Below the pieces are notes generated by a model. The model saw only the letters and a list, made by a program, of their open reading frames with translations. It made no database searches and had not been told where the DNA came from. A DNA stretch of 64,000 bases from Fibrobacterota bacterium (lineage in GTDB: Bacteria > Fibrobacterota > Fibrobacteria > UBA11236): NCBI GenBank assembly GCA_043753995.1, contig JAYUVP010000098.1:52708-116707 (forward strand), written 5' to 3'. Each line of letters opens with the position of its first letter. Within the stretch, counting starts at the first letter, position 1. Below, piece by piece: positions 6,001-28,403 of this stretch. The position numbers and the translations under genes are program-made.

Positions 6001-9000
6001 ATGAAATTCGAAGCCCCAGTTAAAAAAGCCATTCTATCCGCAGCATCTCTGCTGATCCTCATGCTTTTCCCTTTGATACTCCTCTCCTGTTTAGCGAAAT
6101 CGGAAGACGATACCGTTACCATCAAGGTGAAGCCGGCTTGGTTGGAATTGGACAGCTTTGAGGTGGTTTGGGTGGACGCCGAGGGAAAAGAGAAAGCGAT
6201 GCTTTTTCAAGGACCCTTAAAAAACGAATGGAGCCTCACCGATTTGCCAGGCAAGGGATATAAGGGAGAAGCCGCGGTTTTCATGCTGAGAGGGTATGAG
6301 GGCGGCGTCTTGGTTTTCGAGCAAAAGCGCGTTTTTAATCCGAATACCAATCCGAAAATTACCGTGACGACCTTGCGCGATCCCTGGGCGACTTCCGCCG
6401 GGCTTACCCTCGATCCGAAGCGCCTGAACTTAGTGGTGGGAGAAACCAAGGCCGTCCGTGCGGAAACGAATCCCGAGGAAGCGATCCAATCGGTCACCTG
6501 GGAAGCGCGAACTCCGGGCATAGTGGAAATCGTAAGCAATGCGGCTTCGCCGGGGAATGTCACGGTCAAAGCCTTACAGGCAGGCAGCACGGTGATTCTG
6601 GTTCGCGTTTCGACGGATCCCAAACTGGTGGATAGTGTAGTGGTCGATGTTTATTCGTCAGCCGACGCCCCTCCCGTCATTGATGCCTTTGGGCCCGATA
6701 CGGTGATTTCAATTAAGGATAGTGTGATGTTTTCCGCAGTCTTCCATGCCCGCAATGGGAAGCTGGCTACTTGTACTCTGGACGTGAATAGCGACGGTGT
6801 AGCTGAATTTCAAGAGAGCTTGACCGATTCCGCCCATTCCTTCAAGCGCAGCTTTGCCTATCCCGATACGGGAAACTTTTCGGCATCCTTGACCGTAGTC
6901 GATGCCGCCGGTCGAATCAGCCGCGAAACCGCCCTCATCGGGGTCCGTTTGGATGCGCCTCGAATTGATGCAGGAAACGATACCGGAATCGCAGTTGGCA
7001 GTTCTCTTGTATTTGTTGGCAAGGCGACCCAGGACTTTGGAACCTTGGTGTCCTACCGTTGGGATTTCAATGGCGACAATACTTGGGATTTCGAATCGAC
7101 GACCACGGGACAAACCACCCATACCTATGCGTCCGAAGGCACCTTCGTGGCGGTATTCGAAGTCAAAGATGATGACGGAAACGTTTCTCGTGATACACGC
7201 CGCGTGGATGTGGGCAATAAGGCCCCAGCATTCTCAGCCACCCTGCCTGACACCATCATCACTATCAAGGATGCCATCACCTTCAAAGGACGAGTCGCTG
7301 ACGGTGACGGCCTCATCACTAAGCTGGAATGGGACTTCACAGGGACCGGAACCTTCACCCATGCGACCACGCCCGGTCTCGCCCAGGTCGATTTCTCGGT
7401 GGAGCAGGTATTCAATACTCCCTCGGTGATCAAGGTGGTGGCCCGAGCGACGGATAATGGCGGAAAAACCTGGGATGACACGGTAAGGGTCGAGGTGCTA
7501 CTCGATGCTCCCAAGGTCAGCGCGGGAGATGACGTCTCCATGATCGCGGGTGGCCAGATCACCTTGAATGGCACGGCGACCGATGGCCGTGGCCAAGTGG
7601 TTACGACCGAATGGAAAATCGGATCTGGAAACTTTCTGCAAAGACGTCAGGGCGACACCTCCTTCACCGCCCCGAGCACGCCGCAAATCTTATGGGCCTT
7701 ATTCCGCGCCACGGACGATGACGGAAATCAAGTCATGGATTCGGTGAAAGTCACCGTGCGGGCGAGCACGGACAATTTGCTGAAATTGCTGTCGGTGGCT
7801 TCCGTGATTTTGTCGCCCACCACCTTCAATTCAGGGGTCTTCACTTATTCCGGGAGCGTGGCCAATTCCGTGACCTCGGTTTCGATTACCGCTGCCCCTG
7901 TGGATCCCACGGCGACCCTCACGGTGAACGGCGTGGCGGCCACTTCGGGGACGCCAAGCACGGTAAATCTCAGTACCAGTGTTAATGCCATCCCCATTGT
8001 GGTGAAAGCCCAGGACGGTTCTGAGGAGACCTATACGGTCACCATCACGCGGGCACAGGAGGCGAACAACTCTCTTCTAGCTCTGGCAGTCGCAACGGTC
8101 ACGCTTGCGCCTTCCACCTTTAATGCGGCGACCGTGATTTACTCGGGAACGGTGGCCTCGGCCGTGACCTCGGTATCGGTGACCGCGACGACACAAAGTG
8201 ACTTGGCGACCTTGTCGGTGAATAGTCTGGCAGCGACTTCGGGGACCGCGAGTACGGTGAATCTCACCACGGGTCCGAATGCCATCCCCATCGTGGTGAC
8301 AGCTCAGGACGGATCCAAGAAAACCTATACCGTGAACATTACCCGAGCGCAAGATGCGAATAACTCCTTGCTATCGCTGTCGGTGGCTTCGGTCACACTT
8401 GCACCTGCCATCTTTAATGCGGCGACCTTGAATTACACAGGGTCGGTAGCCTCTTCGGTGACTTCGGTTTCGGTGACCGCGACGGTGCAAAGTGCGTCAG
8501 CAACCATGACGGTAAATGGGACTACCGCCACCTCGGGGGCCGCGCGCACGGTCAATCTCACCACGGGCCCCAATGCTATTCCCATTGTCGTCACCGCGCA
8601 AGACGGAACAACAAAAACCTATACAGTGACCATCACCCAACCCGATGCGAATAACGCCTTGCTTTCGCTGTCGGTGGCTTCGGTCACGCTTACGCCTAAT
8701 ATCTTCAATGCGGCGACCTTGAATTACACGGGTACGGTGGCTTCTTCGGTGGCTTCGGTCTCGATGACCGCGACCGTGCAAAGTGCCTCGGCGACTCTGA
8801 CGGTGAATGGGACTACCGCCACCTCGGGGACCGCGCGCACGGTCAATCTTGTCCCGGGTCCGAATGCCATCCCCATCGTGGTGACGGCACAAGACGGGAC
8901 AACCCGAACCTATACGGTGACCATCACCCAGCCGGATGCGAATAATGCGTTGCTATCGCTGTCGGTGGCTTCGGTCACGCTTGCACCCGCCACCTTCAAT

Positions 9001-10500
9001 GCTGCGACCTTGAGTTATTCTGGGTCGGTGGCTTCTACCGTGACTTCGGTCTCGGTGACTGCGACGGTGCAAAGTGCGTCGGCGACCCTGTCGATCAATG
9101 GATCGGCCACGACATCGGGAACCGCGCGCAGCGTTACCCTTACCGCCGGTGCGAATGCCATCCCCGTGATAGTGACGGCCCAGAACGGAACCACTCGGAC
9201 TTATACAGTGACTATCACCCAGCAGGATGGGAACAATAATCTCTCGGACCTGACGCCTTCGGTCGGATCCTTCACGTCGCCCTTCTCGCAAAATACGATT
9301 GCTTATGACCTGGTCGTTCCTGATGTGAATACCAGCGTTCGCTTGACACCCACGGCCGCAGCTCCTCTCACCTCAACTATTACGGTCAACACAGTCGCCG
9401 TCACTTCGGGAGCCCAATCGGCGGCCCTCGCCTTGGCTGCAGCACAAATGACTACCGCGACCATTCGAGTGACATCGCAAAGCGGGGTGACCAAAACCTA
9501 TACGGTGAGGATGCATCGAGGCGGCTGGGTGCAAGCGGGTGGAGTTACGGGCGCTAGCACGGAAGCCCCCGCCGCCTTGGCATCGCATGAAAACATGGTC
9601 TATCATCTGGGGCAAGTCACCCAAACCAGGGTAGCGACCGTGAAGAGGTTGTCCGGATCCACCTGGGGAGCGGATCCCTCATTTCCGGGATTTTCGCCGC
9701 TGGGCGCCAATGCCATGGTGAGCGATGCAACGAATTTGTTTATAGTCAGCGCATGGACGGCAACGGCCATCATGCACCGCAAAAATGCCGCCGCAACTTG
9801 GTCCAACTCCACGGTGGGGCCCCCCGGCATCGCCCTGATGGCCGCAGGTGGGAATAACGCCTATTACTTGTACAAGGACAATATCAACAGCACTCCTCAT
9901 GTGCTCTCTTTCGGTGGAAGCAGCTGGACGGAAATCGGAACCTTGCCCTCGGATGCGGACTATGCCGATTTGGCGGCGGGGTCGGATGGAACGCCCTGGG
10001 TAGCTCAAAATTCCGGCACCTCACTAGAGGTCAGGCGCTGGAGCAGTTCCTTATGGACCACGTCGAGTGGCGGGGGCACCAATGCGACTGGAAGTCTGGC
10101 CTTTTCCTCCTTTTCATTGGGCATTTGGAATAATCTCCCTTATGTCGCCTTTGCCGACGAAGCCAATGGTGGGGGCCTCACCGTGACTCGGGCCTCCAGC
10201 GGGGCAGTCTTGGGAACGCGCGCTTTTTCGCCTAGCGGCCTTGTCGTGTCGGCGTGCCGGGTCTATGGTTCGTCTGGCGTTTTGATCGTTGTCGCGCAAA
10301 TGCGTGATGCCGCAAGCGCCGCCTATTCCAACTATGCCTGGAAGTGGACGGGTTCGGCCTGGGAAATGCTGGGGTCGGGCGCCATATCCACCGGCACGTC
10401 CTCCGGATTCACCTCGACCATGCATCAAGGCTTTCCTTGGATGGGCCAGGTTACGGCTTCCGGAAGTGTCGTCTACCAATACGTCAATACGGCGCCTTGA
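6001..10500 (+). CDS. Giant surface lipoprotein: Ig-like (Big_2), PKD-like domains, six cadherin-like beta-sandwich repeats, C-terminal propeller-like domain
   Basis: Lipobox LLSC; YRWDFNGD/WDFTGTG PKD motifs; repeated NNxLLSLSV...IVVTAQDGTTKTYTVTI. Confidence 0.85.
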   Translation: MKFEAPVKKAILSAASLLILMLFPLILLSCLAKSEDDTVTIKVKPAWLELDSFEVVWVDAEGKEKAMLFQGPLKNEWSLTDLPGKGYKGEAAVFMLRGYEGGVLVFEQKRVFNPNTNPKITVTTLRDPWATSAGLTLDPKRLNLVVGETKAVRAETNPEEAIQSVTWEARTPGIVEIVSNAASPGNVTVKALQAGSTVILVRVSTDPKLVDSVVVDVYSSADAPPVIDAFGPDTVISIKDSVMFSAVFHARNGKLATCTLDVNSDGVAEFQESLTDSAHSFKRSFAYPDTGNFSASLTVVDAAGRISRETALIGVRLDAPRIDAGNDTGIAVGSSLVFVGKATQDFGTLVSYRWDFNGDNTWDFESTTTGQTTHTYASEGTFVAVFEVKDDDGNVSRDTRRVDVGNKAPAFSATLPDTIITIKDAITFKGRVADGDGLITKLEWDFTGTGTFTHATTPGLAQVDFSVEQVFNTPSVIKVVARATDNGGKTWDDTVRVEVLLDAPKVSAGDDVSMIAGGQITLNGTATDGRGQVVTTEWKIGSGNFLQRRQGDTSFTAPSTPQILWALFRATDDDGNQVMDSVKVTVRASTDNLLKLLSVASVILSPTTFNSGVFTYSGSVANSVTSVSITAAPVDPTATLTVNGVAATSGTPSTVNLSTSVNAIPIVVKAQDGSEETYTVTITRAQEANNSLLALAVATVTLAPSTFNAATVIYSGTVASAVTSVSVTATTQSDLATLSVNSLAATSGTASTVNLTTGPNAIPIVVTAQDGSKKTYTVNITRAQDANNSLLSLSVASVTLAPAIFNAATLNYTGSVASSVTSVSVTATVQSASATMTVNGTTATSGAARTVNLTTGPNAIPIVVTAQDGTTKTYTVTITQPDANNALLSLSVASVTLTPNIFNAATLNYTGTVASSVASVSMTATVQSASATLTVNGTTATSGTARTVNLVPGPNAIPIVVTAQDGTTRTYTVTITQPDANNALLSLSVASVTLAPATFNAATLSYSGSVASTVTSVSVTATVQSASATLSINGSATTSGTARSVTLTAGANAIPVIVTAQNGTTRTYTVTITQQDGNNNLSDLTPSVGSFTSPFSQNTIAYDLVVPDVNTSVRLTPTAAAPLTSTITVNTVAVTSGAQSAALALAAAQMTTATIRVTSQSGVTKTYTVRMHRGGWVQAGGVTGASTEAPAALASHENMVYHLGQVTQTRVATVKRLSGSTWGADPSFPGFSPLGANAMVSDATNLFIVSAWTATAIMHRKNAAATWSNSTVGPPGIALMAAGGNNAYYLYKDNINSTPHVLSFGGSSWTEIGTLPSDADYADLAAGSDGTPWVAQNSGTSLEVRRWSSSLWTTSSGGGTNATGSLAFSSFSLGIWNNLPYVAFADEANGGGLTVTRASSGAVLGTRAFSPSGLVVSACRVYGSSGVLIVVAQMRDAASAAYSNYAWKWTGSAWEMLGSGAISTGTSSGFTSTMHQGFPWMGQVTASGSVVYQYVNTAP
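7771..9519 (+). repeat. Intragenic tandem array, six units of about 291-294 nt
   Basis: Units begin near 7771, 8065, 8359, 8650, 8941 and 9232. Confidence 0.9.
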
Positions 10501-10724: not shown

Positions 10725-11186
10725 GTGCTTTCGAAAAAAACCATTTATGCCATCAAGGCATTGCAATACTTGGCCCGCAAGCATAAAAGCGGGCCGGTGC
10801 TCATCGCCGAAATCGCCGAGCAAGAATCCATCCCGCAAAAATTCCTGGAGTTGATTCTCCTGGAGCTGAAAAAAGACGGCGTTCTCGACAGCAAAAAAGG
10901 CAAGGGCGGCGGGTATATGCTGGCTCGCCCCGCCGACAGCATTACTTTGGGGCAAATCATTCGCAAAATGGACGGGCCTTTGGCCTTGCGTCCTTGCGTG
11001 AGCCAGACCGCCTATCGCCGCTGCGACGAATGCAAGGACGAAGTCACTTGCGGCATTCGCATGGCGATGAAGGAAGTGCGCGATCGCACCGCAGAAATTT
11101 TAGATCGCACCTCGCTCGCGCAAATCAATGATGCCGCCAAAGCCGCGCAGGCCAATCGCGGTGGCATACTCGACTATTCGATTTGA
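10725..11186 (+). CDS. Rrf2 family transcriptional regulator
   Basis: YAIKAL, IAEQESIPQKFLELIL, SKKGKGGGY, Cys cluster CVS...CDEC...C. GTG start. Directly upstream of cysK. Confidence 0.93.
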   Translation: MLSKKTIYAIKALQYLARKHKSGPVLIAEIAEQESIPQKFLELILLELKKDGVLDSKKGKGGGYMLARPADSITLGQIIRKMDGPLALRPCVSQTAYRRCDECKDEVTCGIRMAMKEVRDRTAEILDRTSLAQINDAAKAAQANRGGILDYSI

Positions 11187-11210
11187 TCCTTTCCATCACC
11201 CGGAGGCCTT

Positions 11211-12191
11211 ATGGCAAACTGGTTCGCTGACAACTCTCTCTCCATCGGCAATACGCCCCTCGTCAAACTCAATCGCGTCACCGATGGCGCTCAAGCCACC
11301 GTGCTGGCGAAAATCGAAGGGCGCAATCCGGCTTATTCGGTGAAATGCCGCATTGGCGCGGCCATGATTTGGGATGCGGAAAAGCGCGGATTACTCGGCC
11401 CTGGCAAGGAATTGATTGAGCCCACGAGCGGGAATACCGGCATAGCGCTCGCCTTCGTGGCAGCGGCACGCGGCATACCCCTGACGCTCACCATGCCCGA
11501 AACCATGAGCATCGAACGCCGCAAGCTTTTGCTGGCCTATGGTGCCAAGCTCATTTTGACCGAAGGCCCCAAGGGTATGCCCGGCGCCATCGCCAAGGCC
11601 GAGGAAATCGCCGCCACCGATTCGAAATACGTGCTCTTGCAGCAATTCAAGAATCCCGCCAATCCGGCCATTCATGAAAGCACCACCGGCCCGGAAATCT
11701 GGAATGGCACCGATGGCGCCATCGACATTTTCGTTTCGGGCGTGGGCACGGGCGGCACTTTGACCGGCGTGTCACGCTACATCAAGCACACCAAGAAAAA
11801 AGCCATTCATACCGTCGCCGTCGAACCCTCGGCAAGCCCGGTGATTACGCAAACCCGCAATGGCGAAGCGCCCAAGCCCTCGCCGCATAAGATTCAAGGC
11901 ATAGGCGCGGGTTTTGTGCCGGGTAACCTGGATATGACCCTGGTCGATAGCGTCGAGCAGGTGAGCAATGAAGAGGCCATGGAATTCGCGCGCCGCCTTG
12001 CCAAAGAAGAAGGCATACTCTCGGGCATTTCCTGCGGAGCCGCGGTCGCCGTCGCCGTGCGTCTCGCCAAGCGCCCGGAAAATAAGGGCAAGACTCTAGT
12101 GGTTGTGTTACCCGATTCGGGCGAGCGTTATCTCAGCACCTTGCTTTTCGAGGGTTACTTCGACGCTACGGGCAATCCATTGCCGGCCTAA
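11211..12191 (+). CDS. cysK: Cysteine synthase A
   Basis: [11 protein letters not shown] (PLP Lys), [32 protein letters not shown]. Confidence 0.97.
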
Positions 12192-12213
12192 ACTTTGTTT
12201 TTAAAATCTCCCT

Positions 12214-12861
12214 ATGACTTCTTTCTCCCTCGTCATTTTCGATTGCGATGGTGTTTTGGTGGACAGCGAAAGCATTGCCGCCCGCACCCTCTCGCGCTTA
12301 TTGACCCGGTTGGGTTGGGCCATCACCGCTCCCGAAGTCACCGAGCGCTTCAAGGGTAAATCCCTGGCTGACACCGTGCGCCTGGTGGAAGAGCATTTGG
12401 GTCCTTCTTTGCCGGCAACCTGGCTTTATGACTTGGCCATGTTCACGGCCCTCGATTTTGCGAAAGACTTGCGGCCGATACCGGGCGTGCGAGAATTATT
12501 GCTGAACTTGCAAAGCCAGAGCCGGCCTTTTTGCCTGGCTTCGCAGAGCACGCCCGAGCGCATTGAATTGAGTTTGCGCCTCGCCGATTTGTTTTCGTTT
12601 TTTCCAAACCGATTCTTCAGCGCCACCCAGGTGGAAAGAGGCAAGCCCTTTCCCGACCTTTATTTGCTGGCTGCGCAGGTGATGAAGACGCGGCCTGCGG
12701 ACTGCCTGGTCATTGAAGATTCGCCCACCGGGGTGGTTGCGGGGGTTAACGCCGGCATGACGGTGTGGGGATATGCCGGGCCGGGTGGGGGAAATGCCGA
12801 AGCTCTCGCAGCAGCAGGCGCGAAGGTATTCACGTCGATGCATGATTTGGCCATTCCGTAA
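12214..12861 (+). CDS. HAD-superfamily hydrolase (subfamily IA)
   Basis: IFDCDGVLVDSE, GKPFPD, VIEDSPTG. Confidence 0.93.
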   Translation: MTSFSLVIFDCDGVLVDSESIAARTLSRLLTRLGWAITAPEVTERFKGKSLADTVRLVEEHLGPSLPATWLYDLAMFTALDFAKDLRPIPGVRELLLNLQSQSRPFCLASQSTPERIELSLRLADLFSFFPNRFFSATQVERGKPFPDLYLLAAQVMKTRPADCLVIEDSPTGVVAGVNAGMTVWGYAGPGGGNAEALAAAGAKVFTSMHDLAIP

Positions 12862-13012
12862 AGGCGCAATCGAATCGAAACAAGTTTTCGGAAACCCGTT
12901 TGAAAACCGTCTTCTTATAATCCGTATCAACTTCAGATCAAAAAACGCAAAAGCGTAACCGATATTTACCCCCACTCGTTCGAATCACTTCGACGAAACC
13001 GGGAGGTAAGAG

Positions 13013-16000
13013 ATGCGGGTTAGAGAGAATCGTTTTCTGTTCGCCGCCATTGCGCTGGCTGCCGGAGTAGGCAGTCCAGCCATTGCGGCGTCTGATGTGG
13101 TCATCAGCCAGATCTATGGCGGCGGAGGGAATTCCGGCGCCACCTTGCGAAATGACTTTATTGAGCTGCACAATCGCAGCGCCAATCCCATCGACCTCAC
13201 GGGTTGGTCGGTGCAATACGCTTCAGCGACGGGCACCACCTGGTCGCGCACCTTGCTTACAGGCAGCATTGCTGCTGGAGGTTATTACCTGGTTCAGGAG
13301 GCGCAGGGCGCGGGTGGCACGGTTGCTTTGCCCACCCCCGATGCCATCGGAACCCTTGCTATGTCGGCAACGGCGGGAAAGGTGGCCTTGTCGAATTCCG
13401 GTACGGCACTCTCAGGCGCCTGCCCCGCGGGCATGATCGATTGGATTGGTTTCGGCACGGCCAATTGCTTTGAAGGATCGGGCGCCGCGGCCGCGCTGAC
13501 CAATACCACGGCCTCCTTGCGTGGCGCTTCGGGTTGTGATGATGCCGACAATAATGCGGCAGATTTCGCGTCCGGCACCCCGAATCCCCGTAACTCCGCC
13601 GCTACGGCATTCGCTTGTGGCGCCGATGCCGCTCCCCAGGTCTCCTCCATGTCGCCGCCACCCTCCAGCGGTAGCGCGGCTCCGAACACTAACATTGTCA
13701 TCACCTTTAATGAGCCCGTGGCCGTGGCTGGTTCGTGGTTTCAAATATCGGGAACGCTTAGCGGCGGCGTTTCGGCGACGGTTGCAGGTGGCCCTCAGGT
13801 TTTCACCTTGAATCCCGATCTTGACTTCATTCCAGGGGAAAACGTGACAGTGACCGTATTGGCCGCTTCGGTTTCGGATCTGGACACCCTGGATCCTCCT
13901 AACCAACCTATCGCCAATTTCGTCGGCACCTTCACGGTCTTCTCGCCTGTCCGCATCGCGACGATTCAAGGCATGTCGCATACCTCACCCCTGGTCGGCC
14001 AAAACGTCGCGGGTGTCGAGGGTGTAGTCACGGTCCTGCGTACCAATGGTTTCTATCTGCAAGACACCTTGCCCGATGCCAATCCCGCTACTTCCGAAGC
14101 CATTTTTGTCTTCACCAGCACGGTGCCCACCGTGCTTGTCGGGGATGCCGTGACGGTGAGCGGACAGGTCGCCGAATTCCGTGCTGGAGGCAGTAGCGGA
14201 ACCAATAATCTCACCCTGACCGAATTGGTTTCTCCCGTGGTGCAGGTGATTTCTTCGGGACATACCCTGCCCGCCGCCCAAGTCCTCGGGCAAGCGGGAC
14301 GCATTCCCCCTGGAGAAATTATTGACAATGATGCCGGTGGTAATGTTGAAACTGGCGGATCCTTCGACGTAAGCCAGGATGGCATTGATTTCTATGAGAG
14401 CCTCGAAAGCATGCGCGTGCAAGTAAATCAGCCTGTTGTCGTGGGTCCCCGCAACGATTTCGGTGAATTCCTGGTAGTGGGTGATTCGGGTGCCTTGGCC
14501 TCACTGCGCACCCCTCGCGGAGGCGTAAAGGTACGCGCGACGGATTTCAATCCCGAGCGCATCATGGTGGATGACGCCTTGGTTGCCACCCCTTTGGTCA
14601 ATGTGGGCGATGCCTTTGACGGCCCCATCCTCGGTGTGCTGGATTATCAATTCGCCAATTTTAAAATCATCCCCACCAGCTTGCCCAATCGCATTGTCGG
14701 CCCCTTGGTGAAGGAAGTTTCTTCCGCGACCTGCGCAGGTCAATTGACCGTGGCCACCTTTAATGTCGAGAATCTCGATCCTTCCGACCCGCAAGCGAAA
14801 TTCGACAGCCTCGCGGTCGCCATCGTTTCGAATTTGCGCTCGCCCATGGTGATTGCCCTCGAAGAAATGCAGGACAATACCGGAGCGGTGAATGACGGCG
14901 TGGTGGATGCCTCAGTCACTGCCGCGCGTCTTATCGCCGCCGTGCAGGCCGCAGGCGGCCCAATCTATACCTACACGGAAATTGTGCCACAGGAAATGCA
15001 GGATGGTGGCGAACCAGGGGGTAACATTCGCGTTGCCTTCCTGTATCAAGCCGGCAATGGCTTGAGCTTCGTATCGCGCCCGGGCGGAACCTCCACCAAT
15101 GCGGTGCAAGCCCAGGCCGCTCCTGGCGGCGGCGTGCGTCTCAATTTCAGCCCGGGCCGCATCGACCCCCTGAATCCCGCTTTCAATAATAGCCGCAAGC
15201 CCTTGGTCGGCGAATTCCTGTATAAGAGCAGGACCTTTTTCTTCATCGCCAATCATTTCAATTCCAAAGGCGGTGACCAACCCCTGTTCGGACGGTTTCA
15301 GCCCCCGGTTCTCAGCTCCGAAGCGCAGCGAATACAACAAGCCCAGGCGGTGCGGAGTTTCGTGCAGTCGGTATTGAGCCTGGACCCGAATGCGCGCATT
15401 GTCGTACTCGGTGACTTCAATGATTTCGAATTCTCGGCTCCTTTGCAAACCCTGAAAAGCGCTCCTCTGGTCGACCTCATTGAGATCTTGCCCGAAGGCG
15501 AGCGATACAGCTATGTGTATGAAGGCAATTCCCAGGCTCTCGATCACATACTGGTCAGCCCATTCCTTGCGCAACAGCCCGCCAACTTTTATGACGTGGT
15601 TCACGTGAATTCCGAATTCGCCGACCAAGTCAGCGATCATGAACCCCAGCGCGCCTGTTTCGACAAGGGATTGATAGCCGATGCGGGTTTAACCAAGCAG
15701 GAATTGCTGGAGTCGTATAGCCGTCCGCTTTTCGGCATGAGCGCTCCATTGGCCGCTTCCGCACCCGCTTCGGTGGTGCAATACCGCACGCCAGCACAAA
15801 CGGCCGGAGATCAAGTCGCCTTGGCCCCTGGCCTTGCCGCCGCCTATCTCACTCGCAGCATTGGTAATTCGGCGGATCAATTCGCTTTCTGGCCGAATGC
15901 GACCCAACCCACCCATGCGATTTTCTGCATCGAGGACGATCGTGAGGTGATTGGAACCTTTCCGAATACCTTGCCCAAGTACAACCCTTCGGTGCAGCGC

Positions 16001-17080
16001 GTGGATCGCAATGGCAATGTGCAGACCATTCTTCGCGGCATGACCTCATGCGATGGCATCATTACGACAGCATGGGGCACCGTGCTTGCCACCGAAGAAG
16101 AAGAGGATGGTGGTGCTTATGAAATTTTGAATCCGCTCACGACCACGAATTTCACCGTGCAAGACCGGACCACGGGGGTGATACTCGACTCCAATGGCAA
16201 TGTGCAATCCACTCGGATTGCCAAACGGCAAGCGCTTCCCACCATTTCCTGGGAAGGGATTGTGGCTCTTCCTTCCGGCATTCTTTATGGAGGCGATGAA
16301 TTGCGTCCTGGCACCGATTCCGCGGATCGTGACGGCGGCGCCCTGTTCAAATTCATGCCCACCGTGCCAGCCATACCCAATGTCATCATCACAAATTTGA
16401 ACCAGTCGCCTTTGGTGTCTGGATCGGTTCATGCGCTTCAGGTCTCTTGCATAGGCAATGGTCAACAAGCCGGCCAGGGCTGCGAAGTCGGCAATGCCGC
16501 TTGGTTGCCGGTCTTGCCCGCCACGGCCAGGCTCGACGCTCACCGTCTCGGCGCGACCGGATATTACCGGCCGGAAGACATGGATAAGGATCCCATTTAT
16601 TCCGACTCTTTGAATCCCACGGCGATTCGGTTTTGCTGGACCAATACCCAGAATGAAGGCGCCCAAAGTTATGGCGAAGTGATGTGCGCCGTCGACCGTA
16701 GCCCGGCGGTGGCCTCGAATACCCAGCGCACCGTGGTCCTCAACCGCTTCATCACGGGCGATAAGGATTTCAATTCCTTCGACAATATCGCCTTTCAGCC
16801 CGGCACGGGAATTCTATATGTGATCGAAGATCACAATAATGGGGATATCTTCGCTTGCCTCACGGATGGCGCGGATCGCGACAATAAGACCGATGGTTGC
16901 ATCAAGGTTCTTTCCGTCAAGGAATCGGGTGCCGAGCCCACGGGCTTCGCCTTTTTAGGCGACGGAAAATCGGCTGTGCTTTCCATTCAACATTCCAATG
17001 ACAGCCAGATGCCTTTAGTCGACGACTATGGCACCGACGACATCCTTCATATCACCGGCTTCCAGGCTATTGCGCCATGA
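13013..17080 (+). CDS. Secreted multidomain protein: lamin-tail domain, Ig-like, OB-fold, ExeM/NucH-type EEP nuclease, C-terminal PhoX-like (DUF839) domain
   Basis: VVISQIYGGGGN..DFIEL (LTD); TFNVENL, EEMQDN, NHFNSK, GDFND, LDHIL, SDHEP (EEP); CDGI, RPED, DNIAF, AEPTG, SIQH (PhoX-like). Confidence 0.85.
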   Translation: MRVRENRFLFAAIALAAGVGSPAIAASDVVISQIYGGGGNSGATLRNDFIELHNRSANPIDLTGWSVQYASATGTTWSRTLLTGSIAAGGYYLVQEAQGAGGTVALPTPDAIGTLAMSATAGKVALSNSGTALSGACPAGMIDWIGFGTANCFEGSGAAAALTNTTASLRGASGCDDADNNAADFASGTPNPRNSAATAFACGADAAPQVSSMSPPPSSGSAAPNTNIVITFNEPVAVAGSWFQISGTLSGGVSATVAGGPQVFTLNPDLDFIPGENVTVTVLAASVSDLDTLDPPNQPIANFVGTFTVFSPVRIATIQGMSHTSPLVGQNVAGVEGVVTVLRTNGFYLQDTLPDANPATSEAIFVFTSTVPTVLVGDAVTVSGQVAEFRAGGSSGTNNLTLTELVSPVVQVISSGHTLPAAQVLGQAGRIPPGEIIDNDAGGNVETGGSFDVSQDGIDFYESLESMRVQVNQPVVVGPRNDFGEFLVVGDSGALASLRTPRGGVKVRATDFNPERIMVDDALVATPLVNVGDAFDGPILGVLDYQFANFKIIPTSLPNRIVGPLVKEVSSATCAGQLTVATFNVENLDPSDPQAKFDSLAVAIVSNLRSPMVIALEEMQDNTGAVNDGVVDASVTAARLIAAVQAAGGPIYTYTEIVPQEMQDGGEPGGNIRVAFLYQAGNGLSFVSRPGGTSTNAVQAQAAPGGGVRLNFSPGRIDPLNPAFNNSRKPLVGEFLYKSRTFFFIANHFNSKGGDQPLFGRFQPPVLSSEAQRIQQAQAVRSFVQSVLSLDPNARIVVLGDFNDFEFSAPLQTLKSAPLVDLIEILPEGERYSYVYEGNSQALDHILVSPFLAQQPANFYDVVHVNSEFADQVSDHEPQRACFDKGLIADAGLTKQELLESYSRPLFGMSAPLAASAPASVVQYRTPAQTAGDQVALAPGLAAAYLTRSIGNSADQFAFWPNATQPTHAIFCIEDDREVIGTFPNTLPKYNPSVQRVDRNGNVQTILRGMTSCDGIITTAWGTVLATEEEEDGGAYEILNPLTTTNFTVQDRTTGVILDSNGNVQSTRIAKRQALPTISWEGIVALPSGILYGGDELRPGTDSADRDGGALFKFMPTVPAIPNVIITNLNQSPLVSGSVHALQVSCIGNGQQAGQGCEVGNAAWLPVLPATARLDAHRLGATGYYRPEDMDKDPIYSDSLNPTAIRFCWTNTQNEGAQSYGEVMCAVDRSPAVASNTQRTVVLNRFITGDKDFNSFDNIAFQPGTGILYVIEDHNNGDIFACLTDGADRDNKTDGCIKVLSVKESGAEPTGFAFLGDGKSAVLSIQHSNDSQMPLVDDYGTDDILHITGFQAIAP

Positions 17081-18618
17081 ACAGCCATCCAGAAATCAAT
17101 CCAAAAGCAACCGGAAACCAAAACAGGAGAATGAAAATGCTTCAGCCATCCTATAGCAGGATACTCGCGGCTAGCACGCTCTTAGGCGGACTGGCGGCCC
17201 AAAACATCTTGGCCATCGATGCCGGACTTTATTATCAACAGCAATTGCATGCCTATAGCCGTACGCTCTTCGGAATCAATGGCCCACTGCCGGCCAGCGC
17301 TCCCATTGTCGCGCAGCCTTATCGCTTGCCAGTGCAGAGTGCATCCGATCAAGTCGCCTTGGCGCCAGGTCTCAATGCGGCTTATCTCACCCGCAAAGTG
17401 GCCAATGCCGCGGACATGTTTGCCTTTTGGCCCGACGCGGCCAATCCGACCCATGTCTTTTTCTGCATTGAAGGGGGGCGAGAAGTCATTGGAACATTCT
17501 CGACTAGCCAGACCAAGTACAATCCCTCGGTGCAGCGCATCGACAGGAATGGAAATGTGGAAACCTTACTTCGGGGCATGTCCGGCTGCGACGGCATTCG
17601 GCTCACTCCTTGGGGCACACTCTTGGCGACGGAAGAAGAGGATGATGGCGGAGCTTATGAGATTCTCAATCCCATGACCATCACCAATTTCACGGTTCAA
17701 GATCGCGCCACGGGAAATATCGTCGACACCAATGGACTGCCGCAATCCACTCGTATCGCCAAACGCACGGCACTCCCGGTCATGGCCTGGGAAGGCCTTA
17801 CCGTGCAGCCCTCGGGCGTAATCATCGGTGGTGATGAATTGCGGCCCGGTACCGGTGCGCCGGATGCCGATGGCGGCTCCCTGTTCAAGTTCGTCCCCAC
17901 GAATCCCGCCGTCGGATTGACGTCCATATCCCAATTGTCCGAATCGCCGCTGGTCGCTGGCACCGTGCATGCCTTGCAAGTTTCTTGCGTGGGAGGCACC
18001 CAGCAATTTGGTCAAGGTTGTGAAGTCGGTAATGCTTCCTGGATCCCTGTTTCGGCCGCTAGAGCGCGGGCGTATGCCGACTCCCTGGGCGCGACCGGTT
18101 ATTATCGCCCCGAGGATTTAGAGCAAGACCCTGTCTTTGTGGATACGGCCAATCCCCAGGCTATACGTTTTTGCTGGACCAATACCCAGAACGAAGGCGC
18201 GCAAAGCTACGGAGAAGTTCTTTGCGCGGTGGACCGAAATCCTTTGACAGCTTCCGCGACCCAAAGGACGGTCACGGTTTCGCGTTTCCTCGAAGGCGAC
18301 AAGGACTTCAACTCCCTCGACAATATTGCCTTTCAACCCATAACCGGAATACTCTATGTGATCGAGGATCATGACAATGGAGATATTTTCGCTTGCTTGC
18401 CAGATGGTGCCGATCGCGATCTCCAAACGGATGGCTGTATGAAGGTGCTCTCGGTCAAGGACACCAAGGCGGAACCCACGGGTTTTGGCTTTACCGCCGA
18501 TGGCCGCAGCGCTGTGCTTTCGATTCAGCATAGCAATGACGGTAGCATGCCCTCCCAGGATGGGTATCCGACGGATGACATCCTCTTCATTTCGGGTTTT
18601 CAAATACCGGTTAAGTAA
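17077..18618 (+). CDS. Secreted PhoX-like (DUF839) phosphatase; true start possibly 17137
   Basis: Colinear and highly similar to the last ~465 aa of the upstream gene, with its own signal peptide. AGGAGA lies 6 nt before ATG 17137. Confidence 0.8.
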   Translation: MNSHPEINPKATGNQNRRMKMLQPSYSRILAASTLLGGLAAQNILAIDAGLYYQQQLHAYSRTLFGINGPLPASAPIVAQPYRLPVQSASDQVALAPGLNAAYLTRKVANAADMFAFWPDAANPTHVFFCIEGGREVIGTFSTSQTKYNPSVQRIDRNGNVETLLRGMSGCDGIRLTPWGTLLATEEEDDGGAYEILNPMTITNFTVQDRATGNIVDTNGLPQSTRIAKRTALPVMAWEGLTVQPSGVIIGGDELRPGTGAPDADGGSLFKFVPTNPAVGLTSISQLSESPLVAGTVHALQVSCVGGTQQFGQGCEVGNASWIPVSAARARAYADSLGATGYYRPEDLEQDPVFVDTANPQAIRFCWTNTQNEGAQSYGEVLCAVDRNPLTASATQRTVTVSRFLEGDKDFNSLDNIAFQPITGILYVIEDHDNGDIFACLPDGADRDLQTDGCMKVLSVKDTKAEPTGFGFTADGRSAVLSIQHSNDGSMPSQDGYPTDDILFISGFQIPVK

Positions 18619-18639
18619 TTCGGATAATACCGGCCCTCG

Positions 18640-18666
18640 GCCTCGCGCTTCGGCGCGGGGCTTTTT
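18640..18666 (+). terminator. Intrinsic terminator
   Basis: gcctcgcgc-ttcg-gcgcggggc-ttttt. Confidence 0.85.
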
Positions 18667-18762
18667 CATTTCAGGTGAATTAGGTGGGGGAAAAACGGAG
18701 GGGTTTGCGGTGGCAGGCCCGAAAATATTTATGTCTATGCCGGATTTTCAAACGAGGAAGCC

Positions 18763-22717: not shown

Positions 22718-24427
22718 ATGGGATATTCAATGAGCGCTGCCAACCACGAAAGCCTATCGCCCACACCTGCGCCCCAAAGCGTTCATGCCACATTGAGGCA
22801 AGCTGGCCACCCATTAGCAGCGCATGTCACTCGCGATTTCAGGAAGATTGACGTCGGTTTTTCTTCCACTGGTTCGGGGCATGGATTGAGCGCCATTACC
22901 CTTGGAACACCAGGGTCTCCCGCCGAAAGGGAAGCGCAAACCCTTTCCGAAAACTTGCTTGCAGGCAGGGACTTGCCTGCTCCGATGCGTTTCGATTTGA
23001 GCAGCGTTCGTATTCATGCGGATAAGGCCGCTGCGGAATCCGCACGCCAAATCGGCGCTAGTGCTTATACCGTGGGTTCTCATATCGTTTTCGGTGAAGG
23101 CCAGTATCGTCCCGAGACGGCGCAAGGCCGTCATGTTCTGGCTCATGAATTGATGCATGTCGGCCAAAGTCGATACGAAAGGTCGCCCACTTTGCATCGC
23201 TACGAAGCGCCGGAGCATCAGGATTTCGGCGATCGGGGCCTCGCCGATCTCGCTGAATTTTTGCAAACCGACGAAGGGGAAGTTTTCGCGGACCAATTAT
23301 CGCAGCCCGCAAGCCTGAAAGGCATATCCGGCGATCCTTTTCTAATGGGCAAAGTCTTCATGGTAAATGGCGTTCGCCTAACGGTCGGCGACATCATCGC
23401 CATGGCCGGTGATTTTTATCCCGACCCGACCCATTTGTTGAATGCCGATCCCGCGGAGCTCACCGAAATTCGCGACGCCATTCAGGAGGAGCGAGATGGC
23501 AAGCTCAAAGGCGGCAAGGCCAATGAACGCTATCAAGCCATTACCCAGAAATATATTGGCCTTGGCAAACGTGACGCGAAGGAATCCTTCATCGGTTTGG
23601 CCAAGGTCAATGCGCCGCATTTCACCCCAACCAATCGTGCGGCTTGGAAAGAATTGCATAAGCAGGCGCTGAAAGAAGCGCGCCTAGCCGTGAAGGACGC
23701 GGCCAAGCTGGACGCGGCATTGCTAAGAGACGCCTTCGGCGGGCACTTCCTCACGGATGCTTTCGCTTCGGGGCATTTATTCGACAAGCAAAAACTGGAA
23801 GCGGCCATACAGTTTTGGCAAAGCACCAATACCGCCAAGCCTTCCAATCCCGAAATGTCGGTTTATTACGGCATTATCGGGGGAAATATGGGCCAACTGA
23901 TACTGAAAAACATTCATGACAGGTTGAATACGGAAGGCGTGGAAGTTTCCAATAAACGGGGATTGAAGTGGAAAACTTATGGCGATGATCATTTGAAAGA
24001 CGGGCCTGACTCCCTAAGAATCGGGGCCTTGGCCGTATATGAATCGCGTCAGCAAATCCTCGCCGCCAATCGAGGCGGGCCTACCGAGTCGGATAGTTTG
24101 GACGAGGATCATTCCAATGAAGTCTTGGACTTACTGCCTGACGATGCCAGCGTCGATATGGCGACAAAGAAAGCCATCAGTTATATCCCCTCTGCAGCTG
24201 CGGGAGTCACTTCGCTCATTTACCGCCAAAGAGGAGCCGGCGCTTTGGCTCTCAAGGAACAGTTGGGTATTGCTGGTTCCATCCTGGCGCCCATCATCAA
24301 ATCGAATATCGCCACCATCGCCGATCCGGGGCGGGAAAAACAGCTTCTCGATCTCGAACGGAGAAGCCAACAAATGAATTCGGGAAAGCTCCTGGCTCCG
24401 CAATTCACGATATTCGATTTTCCGTAA
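22718..24427 (+). CDS. DUF4157 (eCIS core) domain protein with putative Zn-phospholipase C-like C-terminal domain
   Basis: DLSSVRIH..AYTVGSHIVF..VLAHELMHVGQ, then EHQDFGD, LTVGDIIAMAGDFY, HFLTDAFASGH, IHDRLN. Confidence 0.8.
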   Translation: MGYSMSAANHESLSPTPAPQSVHATLRQAGHPLAAHVTRDFRKIDVGFSSTGSGHGLSAITLGTPGSPAEREAQTLSENLLAGRDLPAPMRFDLSSVRIHADKAAAESARQIGASAYTVGSHIVFGEGQYRPETAQGRHVLAHELMHVGQSRYERSPTLHRYEAPEHQDFGDRGLADLAEFLQTDEGEVFADQLSQPASLKGISGDPFLMGKVFMVNGVRLTVGDIIAMAGDFYPDPTHLLNADPAELTEIRDAIQEERDGKLKGGKANERYQAITQKYIGLGKRDAKESFIGLAKVNAPHFTPTNRAAWKELHKQALKEARLAVKDAAKLDAALLRDAFGGHFLTDAFASGHLFDKQKLEAAIQFWQSTNTAKPSNPEMSVYYGIIGGNMGQLILKNIHDRLNTEGVEVSNKRGLKWKTYGDDHLKDGPDSLRIGALAVYESRQQILAANRGGPTESDSLDEDHSNEVLDLLPDDASVDMATKKAISYIPSAAAGVTSLIYRQRGAGALALKEQLGIAGSILAPIIKSNIATIADPGREKQLLDLERRSQQMNSGKLLAPQFTIFDFP

Positions 24428-24551: not shown

Positions 24552-25328
24552 TCACTGTGGCCACAGGTTGATGCCTAAGCGCACAATCAAGGCCGTGACC
24601 ACGGCCAAAAATGCCCAGCGTATCCACGCATTGCCCGCCGAGATGGCGACACGGCTGCCCAACATGCCGCCTACGAAATTGCAGGCGGCCATGGGAAGGG
24701 CTAAAGACCATACTACCGAGCCCGCCGGCAAAAACCAGAGCAAGGCCCCGAGATTGGATCCGCCATTAATGAATTTCGCCAGTGCCGAGGCTTGCAGGAA
24801 ATCGCGGCCGAATCCCAGGATCAAAATCAAAACCAAAACGCTGCCTGTGCCCGGTCCGAAAAAGCCATCGTAAAAGCCCAGTACCATGCCTGTTACGATG
24901 AGCCAAATGGCATGATGGCGCACGAGAAAGCCGGGTCGGACTTGATGCCCTAGGTTCGGCTTCAGGGCCGTGTAAACCGCCATGATCACCAACAAAAGCA
25001 GAATGGCCGGGCGCAAGACTTGTGGATTGAGATGGGAAACCGCACGCGCGCCGAACCAAGCCGCGATCAGGGCCGCCAAGACGCAGGGAAATAATTCACC
25101 AAGGTTCAAGGTTAGACGGCGCGCATAGGTGATGGCGGCTCCCGTGGTGCCGAATATCGAAGCACCCTTGGTGGTGGCCAAAACACCGGCCACGGGCATT
25201 TCGGGAAAAAGCAAGAGCAGGGCCGGGGTGGTGATGAGCCCGCCGCCCCCGACGATGGCGTCAATAAAACCGGCGGCCAGCGAGGCCAGGGCGGCGGCGA
25301 TTAAGGAGGTAAGCGGAATTTCAAGCAA
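24552..25328 (-). CDS. TSUP / TauE-SafE family transporter
   Basis: AGFIDAIVGGGGLI, GFYDGFFGPGTG, about 8 TM helices. Start uncertain (TTG). Confidence 0.92.
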   Translation of the reverse strand: MLEIPLTSLIAAALASLAAGFIDAIVGGGGLITTPALLLLFPEMPVAGVLATTKGASIFGTTGAAITYARRLTLNLGELFPCVLAALIAAWFGARAVSHLNPQVLRPAILLLLVIMAVYTALKPNLGHQVRPGFLVRHHAIWLIVTGMVLGFYDGFFGPGTGSVLVLILILGFGRDFLQASALAKFINGGSNLGALLWFLPAGSVVWSLALPMAACNFVGGMLGSRVAISAGNAWIRWAFLAVVTALIVRLGINLWPQ

Positions 25329-25426
25329 GGCTTAAACAGTAGGAATGCCTAGTGGCGGCCATTCGCTTGAATTGAGGCGAAAAGTACACCGGCTTTCCCG
25401 TGAACATGGATTTTTGGCCAAATACC

Positions 25427-25560
25427 CTATTTAACTAATAGAACTTGTTTGACCACAATTTTGGAGGATATTGCAGTATTTTGCTGACATTAAAAGAATT
25501 TTAGGATTATCTCTTGACAGTCGCCATGGTCTAGGCTTACATTCTCTACATAAACGATAG
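25427..25560 (+). promoter_or_regulatory. Sigma70-type promoter of the sulfate uptake operon with two CTAY-N7-ATAG boxes
   Basis: TTGACA 25514-19, 18 nt spacer, TACATT 25538-43. Boxes at 25427-41 and 25546-60. Confidence 0.55.
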
Positions 25561-25627
25561 ACTAATAGTTTTTGGATTCGTCCCCACACCCTACCTGTCT
25601 GCCGAAGGCAAGAAACTGAGGCCCACC

Positions 25628-25789
25628 ATGTCGGAACGACAGCACGAGAATAGCTCGCCGGAATGGCAGCAGGCCCTGCAAGTGGCCCTGCGAGACTTGC
25701 GTTTTGGCTCGGTGGAAATCACCGTGCATGAAGGTAAGGTCACGCAAATCGAGCGCCACGAAAAAATTCGTCTCAACCACAACGCCTGA
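25628..25789 (+). CDS. YezD/DUF2292 (OscA-like) small protein, 53 aa, absent from the ORF track
   Basis: MSERQHENSSPEWQQALQVALRDLRFGSVEITVHEGKVTQIERHEKIRLNHNA with the FGSVEITVHEGKVTQIE signature. GAGG RBS. Confidence 0.9.
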   Translation: MSERQHENSSPEWQQALQVALRDLRFGSVEITVHEGKVTQIERHEKIRLNHNA

Positions 25790-25800
25790 TGGAGTTTTTC

Positions 25801-27270
25801 ATGTCCTATCCCCAATTGCCGACGGCACTCCGCGCCGTCTGGATTGCCACCGCCCTAGCTGCGGCCTTGATTCCAAATCGCCTGCTGGCCGGCGATTCGA
25901 CGGCCGTGGATTCCCTGACTGCGAAACTGAACGAGCTGGATCAAAAGGTCCGAATTTTGGAACGCAACCGGGAAATCGATCAAGAAGCTGCAAAGGCGAC
26001 CGCCGAAAAAGTCGGCAAGGCTCTCAGCGACGACAAGGGATTCGGCCTCGTCAGTCAAGATGACAAGAGTTTCAGTCTCAAGCCAAAAGGCTTTTTGCAG
26101 AGCGTCGGCACCTATTATCTAGATGACGAAGACAATAAGATTTATTCCAACAACTTAACGGCTCGCCGCATGCAAACCTATTTCGATGGGGTCTTGTATA
26201 AGAAATTCGCCTTCCGCGTGCATACCGATTTCGCCGGCGCCAGCTTTGTTTTGCTCGATTCCTATCTCGATTGGAATTTCCTTCCCGAGCTTTCGCTGCG
26301 CGTCGGTAAATTCAAGGTCCCGACCAATTTGGAGCGTTTGCAATCTTCTTCCCGCGCGCAATTCATCGAGCAGGGATATGCTTCGGCCTTGTTACCCAAC
26401 CGCGATTTGGGCATTCAACTGTCAGGCTTGATTTCGGGTGGCTTGCTGGAATACCAAGTCGGTGTTTTCAATGGCGTGCAGGACGCCGGATCGGGCGCTG
26501 ATGATGCCAGCGATGACAAGGATGCTTGGGCACGCGTTTTCATTAGCCCATTCGCCAACTCTTCGATTTACTTATTGCAAGGTTTGGGACTAGGCGTTTC
26601 CGCCAGCCAAGGATGGCAAGAAAACGGGGCACTACCTACTTACCGTTCGCCCAATCGCGCCGTTACCTTATTCGCTTATCGTCCAGCTGTTGCCGCCGTT
26701 CCGGCGGTTGGTACAACTCCTGCCGCTCCCGCTATCGCGGCGGTGATTTCCAAAGGCGAAGTCAAGCGCCTGAATCCCCAAGCCAGTTATTACAATGGCG
26801 GCCTTTCCTTAGGGGGTGAATGGGCCAGCACCACGCAAAAAGTCGAGAAGGCTGGATTCGGCAGCAAGGAATTAATCCATACCGCTTGGCAAGCATCGGC
26901 GGCCTTTGTGGTCACCGGTGAAGCACAAACCTATAAGGGCCTCAAGGTCAAAAACGCCGTTCAAGACAGTGGTCTGGGCGCCATTGAAATTCTCGGCCGC
27001 GTCGGCGCCATCGCATTCGACGAAGACTCCTTTGAGAAAAACCTTTGGGCAGACAGCACGGCTTCGGCGAAATCTGGATTCAGCTGGACCGTGGGCGTGA
27101 ACTGGTATTTGAACAATGCCGTTCGTCTGCAACTGAATTATGAGCAAAACACTTTTGATGGCGGCCGAAAAGGCACCGTCCCGACGGGCGCGGGCGCGGC
27201 GACCCGCACCGTGGTGCTAGACAAATTCGACGAGAAAGTCATTTCACTCAGCTTTAACGTGGCTTATTGA
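25801..27270 (+). CDS. OprO/OprP-family anion porin (probably sulfate)
   Basis: Signal peptide, N-terminal coiled coil, GKFKVP, NRDLG, GVNWYLN, terminal aromatic residue. First large gene of the sbp operon. Confidence 0.88.
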   Translation: MSYPQLPTALRAVWIATALAAALIPNRLLAGDSTAVDSLTAKLNELDQKVRILERNREIDQEAAKATAEKVGKALSDDKGFGLVSQDDKSFSLKPKGFLQSVGTYYLDDEDNKIYSNNLTARRMQTYFDGVLYKKFAFRVHTDFAGASFVLLDSYLDWNFLPELSLRVGKFKVPTNLERLQSSSRAQFIEQGYASALLPNRDLGIQLSGLISGGLLEYQVGVFNGVQDAGSGADDASDDKDAWARVFISPFANSSIYLLQGLGLGVSASQGWQENGALPTYRSPNRAVTLFAYRPAVAAVPAVGTTPAAPAIAAVISKGEVKRLNPQASYYNGGLSLGGEWASTTQKVEKAGFGSKELIHTAWQASAAFVVTGEAQTYKGLKVKNAVQDSGLGAIEILGRVGAIAFDEDSFEKNLWADSTASAKSGFSWTVGVNWYLNNAVRLQLNYEQNTFDGGRKGTVPTGAGAATRTVVLDKFDEKVISLSFNVAY

Positions 27271-27317
27271 GCCGCTCTCGAACCCGATAACCCATCACCA
27301 GCAGACCCATCATACCT

Positions 27318-28331: not shown

Positions 28332-28344
28332 TTTTTCGGTCTTA

Positions 28345-28378: not shown

Positions 28379-28403
28379 CATGTCTTTCAGATAGGATAGA
28401 GTC

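Follow-up and report, generated by a model that had tools for sequence, protein, structure and literature searches.

A 64,000-nucleotide stretch of DNA from a Fibrobacterota bacterium (assembly GCA_043753995.1, contig JAYUVP010000098.1, positions 52,708 to 116,707 of the forward strand), hereafter the window, carries two adjacent genes, A and B. Gene A (nt 13013–17080, protein P0001) encodes a secreted protein of 1355 residues in which a nuclease is fused to a domain resembling the phosphatase PhoX. Gene B (nt 17137–18618, protein P0003) encodes a stand-alone PhoX-like protein of 493 residues. Both genes and all of their parts described below lie on the forward strand. An earlier note on this DNA had taken A for a one-polypeptide enzyme that wins phosphate from DNA, created by duplication and fusion, with B as the free copy of its phosphatase.

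The ribosome-binding site of gene A, GGGAGG (nt 13001–13006), lies 6 nt 5′ of the ATG. The layout of the protein follows from the list of open reading frames (ORFs), Pfam and NCBIfam. Residues 1–25 (nt 13013–13087) read by eye as a Sec-type signal peptide, cut after AIA and without twin arginine. A lamin tail domain (LTD, PF00932) occupies residues 24–128 (nt 13082–13396; E 8.1e-15, 55.6 bits against a cut-off of 34.3), and a bacterial Ig-like domain, Big_5 (PF13205, E 2.3e-9), residues 205–294 (nt 13625–13894). Residues 335–868 (nt 14015–15616) match the ExeM/NucH nuclease profile NF033681 (E 1.1e-44). The EEP catalytic domain, residues 581–876 (nt 14753–15640), covers the full Exo_endo_phos profile (PF03372, positions 1–225 of 225). 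The alignment then shows a linker of about ten residues, EPQRACFDKG (nt 15641–15670), that leads into the fused PhoX-like domain, D1, at residues 887–1355 (nt 15671–17077), as delimited by Pfam PhoX and by BLASTP against B. Pfam places PhoX (PF05787) on residues 1018–1328 with 43.4 bits (cut-off 24). The order is therefore signal peptide, LTD, Big_5, EEP nuclease, linker and PhoX-like domain. The combination of LTD, EEP and DUF839 that the earlier note proposed is borne out, with LTD, a whole-profile Exo_endo_phos and PhoX all called by Pfam on A and a stand-alone PhoX on B. Its junction was also placed correctly: the SDHEP of the EEP domain ends at residue 878 and continues in frame to DAGL, which starts at residue 890 (nt 15680), and the DAGL of B starts at D48 (nt 17218).

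With a signal peptide (read by eye), an LTD and a whole-profile EEP domain, A has the N-terminal and catalytic layout of ExeM/NucH nucleases. The EEP motifs FNVEN, GDFND, LDH and SDHEP are invariant across six fused homologs, and we take them to have the catalytic roles familiar from the EEP literature. QRACFD of the linker is likewise unchanged in all six. The match to NF033681 (ExeM_NucH) extends over profile positions 1–509 of 546 and scores 153.3 bits, below the curated cut-off of 300; the nuclease is judged a relative of ExeM/NucH and not a curated member of that family. The profile of ExeM proper (NF033680, the GlyGly-CTERM form) gave 48 bits on A against 1300, short of a full-length match. 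A GlyGly-CTERM anchor was not found in A, whose C-terminus is the PhoX-like domain ending in GFQAIAP. ExeM of Shewanella oneidensis and NucH-type nucleases share with A a signal peptide and an LTD, followed by an OB-like stretch and, towards the C-terminus, a large EEP domain; ExeM is described as Ca2+-dependent (PMC6085458). Gene A differs from them by its lower profile score, an extra Big_5, and the PhoX-like domain in place of the anchor.

ORF B is open from nt 17077 to 18618 and gives 513 residues if read from its first ATG, from which its residues are numbered here. The start is most likely M21 (nt 17137), because AGGAGA (nt 17125–17130), a ribosome-binding site, lies 6 nt 5′ of it and the database copy of the protein has 493 residues. 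The two genes would therefore be 56 nt apart and not overlapping. Tat (twin-arginine) export of B through NRRMK, which is present in the first-ATG reading, was considered and rejected, since the ribosome-binding site favours M21 and NRRMK is probably untranslated. Residues M21–A46 (nt 17137–17214) appear to form a Sec-type signal peptide cut after ILA, judged by eye and by comparison of family N-termini. The mature PhoX-like domain, D2 (nt 17215–18615), is a six-bladed β-propeller in the model (AlphaFold2 and Foldseek). Pfam finds PhoX alone on B (residues 177–486, 50.8 bits against 24), and the NCBIfam scan of B returned no match. In both A and B the matched part of PF05787 comprises only positions 168–514 of 515. 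BLASTP aligns A 887–1351 with B 45–509 at 324 of 465 residues identical (70%) with zero gaps, and the two DAGL motifs are counterparts; the PhoX-like regions are colinear, as had been proposed.

A hairpin resembling an intrinsic terminator (nt 18639–18662, 10 pairs, 8 of them GC) with a T run, together nt 18639–18672, stands 3′ of B. The terminator scan found no comparable hairpin between A and B, in agreement with the single terminator previously claimed. A and B are read as one two-gene transcription unit.

Two 66%-identical copies lying side by side invite the suspicion that an assembly error or a frameshift has united two separate genes. We reject this explanation as having hardly any chance of being right. 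D1 and D2 are 65.9% identical at the nucleotide level, and a collapsed assembly can be excluded because the longest run identical between them is 23 nt, a repeat judged too short to yield one. The GC content at third codon positions is even across the parts (nuclease part 0.64, D1 0.63, D2 0.61). In a search centred on the junction (query A 760–1060, 120 proteins listed), 6 of the 120 clusters cover the query completely, whereas coverage does not exceed 56% in any of the remaining 114. Five clusters besides that of the window, from different sources and assemblies, thus span the same junction with invariant QRACFD.

The fusion is rare. Among 7998 scored candidates, a search with B for long relatives gave 36 proteins of 899–2565 residues; 6 of the 36, the window's own included, combine the nuclease with PhoX-like domains, and they are the same six as in the junction search. 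In species-representative genomes, an extension of this kind past the nuclease was seen in one of the best 80 loci (out of 387 relatives), a Fibrobacteria metagenome-assembled genome (MAG), locus L001. There a single ORF of 1835 residues, the same protein as P0123, comprises nuclease, D1 and D2. P0124 has the same make-up, the fused forms being 1820–1835 residues long, and in the relatives that fuse both copies D1 and D2 are joined by a six-residue linker. The nuclease–PhoX fusion is real and rare, and its few carriers form a small clade that database records label as Fibrobacteria. The two-part scheme of the earlier note, a fusion with a stand-alone copy, describes the window correctly; a scheme of three modules fits better, since relatives fuse the second copy too.

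The earlier note had allowed that the architecture might be common and already characterised. It is neither, given its occurrence in six of 120 junction clusters and the outcome of full-text literature searches, which found no account of a DUF839/PhoX–nuclease fusion and whose coverage mostly leaves out subscription journals. The architecture is present in public databases under automatic names, e.g. "alkaline phosphatase PhoX". The fusion is thus rare and undescribed, yet made from known parts, and related EEP nucleases bear other enzyme fusions. From the 80 loci, 12 long ORFs were picked for extending beyond the nuclease and scanned for partners. One of the 12 (L025, a Caldilineales MAG) joins the same EEP family to 5′-nucleotidase C-terminal domains, and four (L043, L048, L053 and L060, Bacillaceae) join it to Endonuclease I; others of the 12 carry DUF11 or HYR repeats. 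The 5′-nucleotidase part has a counterpart in YhcR of Bacillus subtilis. In the nuclease–nucleotidase and nuclease–nuclease fusions, as in gene A, the same scaffold bears a C-terminal enzyme for the next step. The window differs in its partner, a PhoX-like propeller of the non-specific monoesterase type, present in two copies, one of them free here and fused in relatives. In two cyanobacterial proteins (P0196 and P0246) the nuclease is paired with choice-of-anchor I or phytase-like propellers.

The PhoX-like domain belongs to a large subfamily of proteins of about 500 residues; of 8000 candidates scored with B, at least 1429 match at E ≤ 0.001. All 120 listed members carry PF05787. The AlphaFold2 model of B has a mean predicted local distance difference test score (pLDDT) of 83.9 and a predicted template modelling score (pTM) of 0.84. 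Foldseek ranks PhoX of Pseudomonas fluorescens on top for this model (4a9v/3zwu, E 6.1e-16, TM 0.57/0.51, 15% identity), followed by other six-bladed propellers at E of about 1e-8. The family profile aligns by hhalign with Leptospira PhoX (probability 97.7%, E 2.3e-12), which in turn matches 3zwu at E 1.6e-86. Because the Pfam score above cut-off, the leading Foldseek match and the hhalign result agree, the domain is judged a distant relative of PhoX with the six-bladed propeller fold. The PhoX-like call of the earlier note stands as to family and fold; the likeness is distant, at about 15% identity, and the metal site is probably different at the Cys.

Residues were mapped by chaining through Leptospira PhoX as a bridge. 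In this mapping PhoX E193/E194 correspond to E186/E187 of B and E1028/E1029 of A, E273 to E239 and E1081, D291/D292 to D253/E254 and D1095/E1096, R385 to R344 and R1186, E387 to E346 and E1188, D479 to D415 and D1257, D494 to D431 and D1273, E532 to E466 and E1308, and Q550/H551 to Q484/H485 and Q1326/H1327. Together with D1014, which is equivalent to D172 of B, these residues of A make up the putative site of D1. For residues other than R385 and D292, site roles are presumed from motif conservation and general knowledge of PhoX. Among the active-site residues of P. fluorescens PhoX, R385 and D292 are given by name (PMC11098088), and PhoX is described as having 10 such residues (PMC5768637). 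The counterpart of R385 is kept as Arg and D292 is replaced conservatively by Glu, both being at least 97% conserved in the subfamily. The EE, E, DD, RPE, D, D, E and QH motifs of PhoX have conserved counterparts throughout. The metal ligands had been proposed for comparison with P. fluorescens PhoX: the acidic motifs and R385 are kept, while D292 has become Glu and the Cys ligand is doubtful. Overall, the window domain resembles P. fluorescens PhoX (3zwu, 4a9v, 4alf, 4amf) as its best structural match, with colinear motifs and R385 and acidic residues kept. It differs in its low identity, a length of about 465 residues against about 590, Sec instead of Tat export, the D292 change, and its eight cysteines with four likely disulfides, where the counterpart of the Fe-ligand Cys is probably bonded and a subfamily-specific Asp (D172/D1014) lies beside it.

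The conservation of the site was assessed on 158 columns in which at least 97% of 115 stand-alone members share one residue. D1 of the window retains 150 of the 158 and D2 154, and their losses spare every putative site residue. Four degenerate copies retain fewer (P0157_D1 130, P0124_D1 and P0124_D2 128 each, P0007_D2 137) and have lost the same set, namely the equivalents of E187, E239, E254, R344/E346, D415, D431, E466 and Q484/H485. D172 is also lost in three of the four. Because this one set is lost together in four degenerate copies, the lost residues appear to mark one functional site. The degenerate domains of P0124, P0157 and P0007 may be pseudo-enzymes; the cysteines defining the fold are still kept in them.

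Tat signals were not found in A or B, whose presequences both read by eye as Sec-type. RR occurs anywhere in the presequence in only 5 of 117 stand-alone members and a Tat-like motif in 1 of 117, so that Sec export is taken to be the norm of the subfamily and not an oddity of the fusion. The earlier note was right about the Sec-like signal without twin arginine, which it called unusual for PhoX; within this subfamily the signal is ordinary.

Eight cysteines occur in the mature part of 98 of 118 subfamily members, and likely form four disulfides per PhoX-like domain. C130 and C171 of B (codons nt 17464–17466 and 17587–17589), equivalent to C972 and C1013 of A (nt 15926–15928 and 16049–16051), are both Cys in 108 rows and neither in 19, with no mixed row (n = 127). 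On this perfect covariation the two are probably bonded to each other as a disulfide, one partner of which is the counterpart, by alignment, of the iron-binding Cys of PhoX. That alignment has two readings: hhalign pairs C171/C1013 with the Fe-ligand Cys of P. fluorescens PhoX, which we take to be C179, after a one-residue gap, and without the gap its partner is the neighbouring D172. D172 is retained in 124 of 127 rows and missing only in degenerate copies, which keep the C130/C171 pair. In PhoX a Cys thiolate is described as a ligand to Fe3+, and the Tat export of PhoX is explained by iron loading in the cytoplasm (PMC4223295). For domains that are Sec-exported, disulfide-rich and devoid of the free thiolate, a different metal centre is therefore possible.

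The history of the two copies was examined in a tree built by the "quick" method from 35 domains, of which 6 are fused D1, 6 downstream D2 and 23 stand-alone (the last picked from the 120 listed relatives); P0124 and P0157 sit on long branches in it. D1 and D2 together form one clade against the stand-alone relatives, with 98 by the Shimodaira–Hasegawa-like approximate likelihood ratio test (SH-aLRT), and within it the fused D1 (90) and the downstream D2 (94) form separate groups. Since the copies cluster together and then split by position, the tree supports a single tandem duplication within this group that predates the divergence of its lineages, and fusion of the proximal copy with the nuclease. 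The duplication and fusion proposed earlier agree with this tree. The extra D1–D2 fusion, seen only in the sister pair P0123/P0124, is taken by parsimony as secondary. A stand-alone Sec-type PhoX-like gene may thus have duplicated in tandem beside a nuclease gene; the proximal copy would then have shed its signal peptide and joined the nuclease, and the distal copy would have been fused too in one sublineage. Against the L001 ortholog the ratio of nonsynonymous to synonymous differences per site (pN/pS) is 0.25 in both D1 and D2 and 0.29 in the nuclease part, although pS is saturated in this comparison; all three are judged to be under purifying selection. Comparison of D1 with D2 by dN/dS was uninformative, as pS is saturated at 0.74.

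Tandem copies are usual among the long relatives: 32 of 35 contain two full PhoX-like copies, including all 30 without a nuclease. These 30 double proteins (P0125–P0154) have short linkers, and some bear collagen-repeat, PKD or choice-of-anchor I domains. One tandem relative has a predicted fold with pTM 0.82 over 951 residues, a global score and not one for the interface. A complex prediction for D1 (887–1355) with mature B (45–513) scored 0.74 against 0.00 for the best control; the mark for this score is reached by 116 of 157 solved complexes but by just 2 of 215 mismatched pairs. At least 9% of contacts are common to the runs, and partner pLDDT is 76 or higher. Because relatives fuse both copies, tandem copies prevail in 32 of 35 and the complex score is high, D1 and B probably bind as a pseudo-dimer.

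Taken together, we hold it to be rather probable that A and B constitute a two-gene, three-module secreted unit that frees phosphate from extracellular DNA (eDNA). The analysis establishes the order of the domains, the layout of the operon, the paralogy with its age, the purifying selection, the conservation of the site residues and how rare the fusion is; the nuclease and phosphatase activities, substrates, metals, D1–B contact, location and regulation are what we infer here. Both proteins would leave through Sec and reach their fold beyond the cytoplasm, each PhoX-like domain holding some four disulfides. DNA would be held by the stretch of A made up of LTD, Big_5 and the OB-like part, and the EEP domain, of the Ca/Mg type, would cut it to oligo- and mononucleotides. 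D1, ten residues behind the nuclease, together with docked free B would strip the phosphomonoester groups. Phosphate would thereby be set free beside the enzyme and the cell instead of diffusing away.

A precedent is the pathway of Vibrio cholerae, in which growth on eDNA as phosphate source is reported to need secreted Xds/Dns together with PhoX, UshA and CpdB (PMC4714964). There an LTD + OB + EEP nuclease, Xds, and PhoX jointly win phosphate from eDNA (PMC4714964, PMC6746945). Xds is described as an exonuclease that gives nucleotides (PMC6746945), and ExeM as a Ca2+-dependent endonuclease (PMC6085458). PhoX of Sinorhizobium meliloti is reported to have a Km of 92 µM for AMP (PMC11098088). 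Because the nuclease resembles Xds/ExeM and V. cholerae provides the precedent with PhoX, A and B are most likely a tethered version of that pathway. In V. cholerae the enzymes are separate and unlinked, and its PhoX is Pho-regulated and periplasmic, whereas the window has one polypeptide with an adjacent paralog, a divergent Sec-type PhoX-like part and no visible Pho link. Psip1 of marine picocyanobacteria, a very divergent PhoX-like propeller, is described as an Fe-/Ca-dependent phosphatase that keeps the PhoX site residues (PMC11098088). Its activity is a precedent for active remote PhoX-like propellers, although it has no nuclease fusion and is likened to the window domain by description, not by sequence.

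Several observations weigh against a phosphate-scavenging unit. The likeness to PhoX is remote, at about 15% identity: phmmer with B against the PDB did not find PhoX, the family profile reaches PhoX in the PDB only at E of about 1, and NCBIfam is silent on B. The metal centre may differ from PhoX at the Cys ligand, and the domain persists in P0124, P0157 and P0007 after the site residues are lost. The complex prediction used paralogs 70% identical with custom alignments and its agreement is low; one run was an overlay artefact with 5445 contacts, none confident. V. cholerae PhoX was inactive on 5′AMP and ATP in older work, as cited in PMC4714964. Shewanella ExeM is reported as cell-associated with mainly a biofilm effect, EndA being the main phosphorus nuclease there (PMC6085458). 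No Pst, PhoU, PhoB or PhoR family was found among the 41 neighbouring ORFs scanned. Around A and B lie genes for an Rrf2 regulator, a PALP enzyme and a HAD hydrolase, and for an ABC transporter of the sulfate type accompanied by an O/P porin. In L001 neither the flanks (glycosyltransferases, DUF6259) nor the downstream ORF show any relation to those of the window.

The same enzymes could serve another purpose, the remodelling or clearing of eDNA in the biofilm matrix or at the cell surface, with the phosphatases tidying the products. ExeM and Xds are reported to shape biofilms, and ExeM to add little to growth on DNA phosphorus (PMC6085458, PMC6746945); the missing Pho-regulon genes among the 41 scanned ORFs fit as well. 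Remodelling gives no reason, however, to tether two phosphomonoesterase-like domains whose site residues are under purifying selection, and the parallel 5′-nucleotidase fusion (L025) points to complete mineralisation. We regard this as an unlikely alternative, if the least unlikely of those weighed here. The ten-residue tether would put the propeller at the very DNA being cut, and the PhoX-like domains might then act on the polymer itself, removing 3′- or 5′-phosphates from DNA ends and oligonucleotides, or acting as a phosphodiesterase, so that the EEP domain keeps working. McDonough et al. argue that PhoX of V. cholerae may use some nucleotides only, or DNA directly (PMC4714964), and the PhoX-like propeller Psip1 weakly cleaves a diester substrate (PMC11098088). 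PhoX enzymes are described, on the other hand, as exclusively phosphomonoesterases (PMC4223295), and most of the subfamily is stand-alone and nuclease-free (at least 1429 matches), which argues for a general substrate; action on the polymer seems to us a little less probable still than remodelling.

The propellers could also be non-enzymatic, serving as Ca-binding adhesion or anchor modules in lieu of the GlyGly-CTERM of ExeM, by which the nuclease would be fixed to a surface, polymer or partner. The domain sits where the C-terminal anchor of ExeM lies (PMC6085458), D1 and B are predicted to bind each other, and P0124, P0157 and P0007 keep their domains without the equivalents of E187, E239, E254, D415, D431, E466 and Q484/H485. 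Both window copies keep all of those residues (150 and 154 of the 158 columns), and the coordinated loss in the degenerate copies implies one functional site where it is kept. Of these three alternatives, mere anchoring is the one to which we give the lowest credence. The release of phosphate from eDNA by a nuclease and two PhoX-like modules remains the preferred reading.

A further and bolder idea, which we consider improbable though worth stating, goes beyond this preferred reading. The unit would be an extracellular three-module machine in which D1, carried by a nuclease bound to DNA, heterodimerises with free B, and the whole subfamily would be a Sec-exported and disulfide-locked branch of PhoX, with the Fe-binding Cys replaced by a carboxylate (D172/D1014) and the metal centre assembled outside the cell, possibly with Ca only.

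Upstream of A, a direct repeat, GAAACCCGT / GAAAACCGT, 11 bp apart, is followed by TATAAT (nt 12916–12921), the whole spanning nt 12891–12921 of the forward strand. A role as regulator site and −10 box is speculative. A Pho box was considered for the repeat (nt 12891–12910) and rejected, as the pattern occurs once in the window, yet at least one match appears in 20 of 100 shuffles. The sigma-70 scan called no promoter at nt 12891–12921, a general repeat search picked up nothing at nt 12891–12910, and Rfam and tRNA scans of the window gave no matches.

The surroundings of A and B have a sulfur flavour. Upstream (nt 10725–12861) are the Rrf2 regulator, the PALP enzyme, which is cysteine-synthase-like, and the HAD hydrolase. 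Downstream (nt 24552–31224) lie a TauE exporter, the O/P-type porin and an SBP_bac_11 / TOBE_3 ABC transporter of the sulfate type rather than the Pst type. An eCIS core domain (PF13699, E 4e-25) is present in a 569-residue protein at nt 22718–24427, encoded beside a beta-carbonic anhydrase. Two further, very large proteins look secreted, one of 1499 residues with six cadherin-like repeats and PKD (nt 6001–10500) and one of 1209 residues with PKD/Big domains (nt 45337–48966). Three ThuA-domain paralogs are located at nt 34630, 35853 and 59516.

Extracellular DNA is a large pool of organic phosphorus, and as a rule its conversion to phosphate takes nucleases and phosphatases that are separate proteins. 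Their natural fusion serves as "Rosetta stone" evidence that the products of nucleases are what this Sec-exported PhoX-like subfamily, large and so far unstudied, acts upon, and it offers a compact construct for testing that role. The degenerate copies in sister lineages are natural controls for the putative catalytic residues. Of most interest are how the paralogs pair and what metal centre the Sec-type subfamily has. If the bolder idea holds, this would be a PhoX-type phosphatase free of the cytoplasmic iron loading and Tat export that are thought to constrain PhoX. If the site of the subfamily lacks the iron-binding thiolate, this would matter for the debated question of whether iron limits PhoX-type phosphatases in natural settings.

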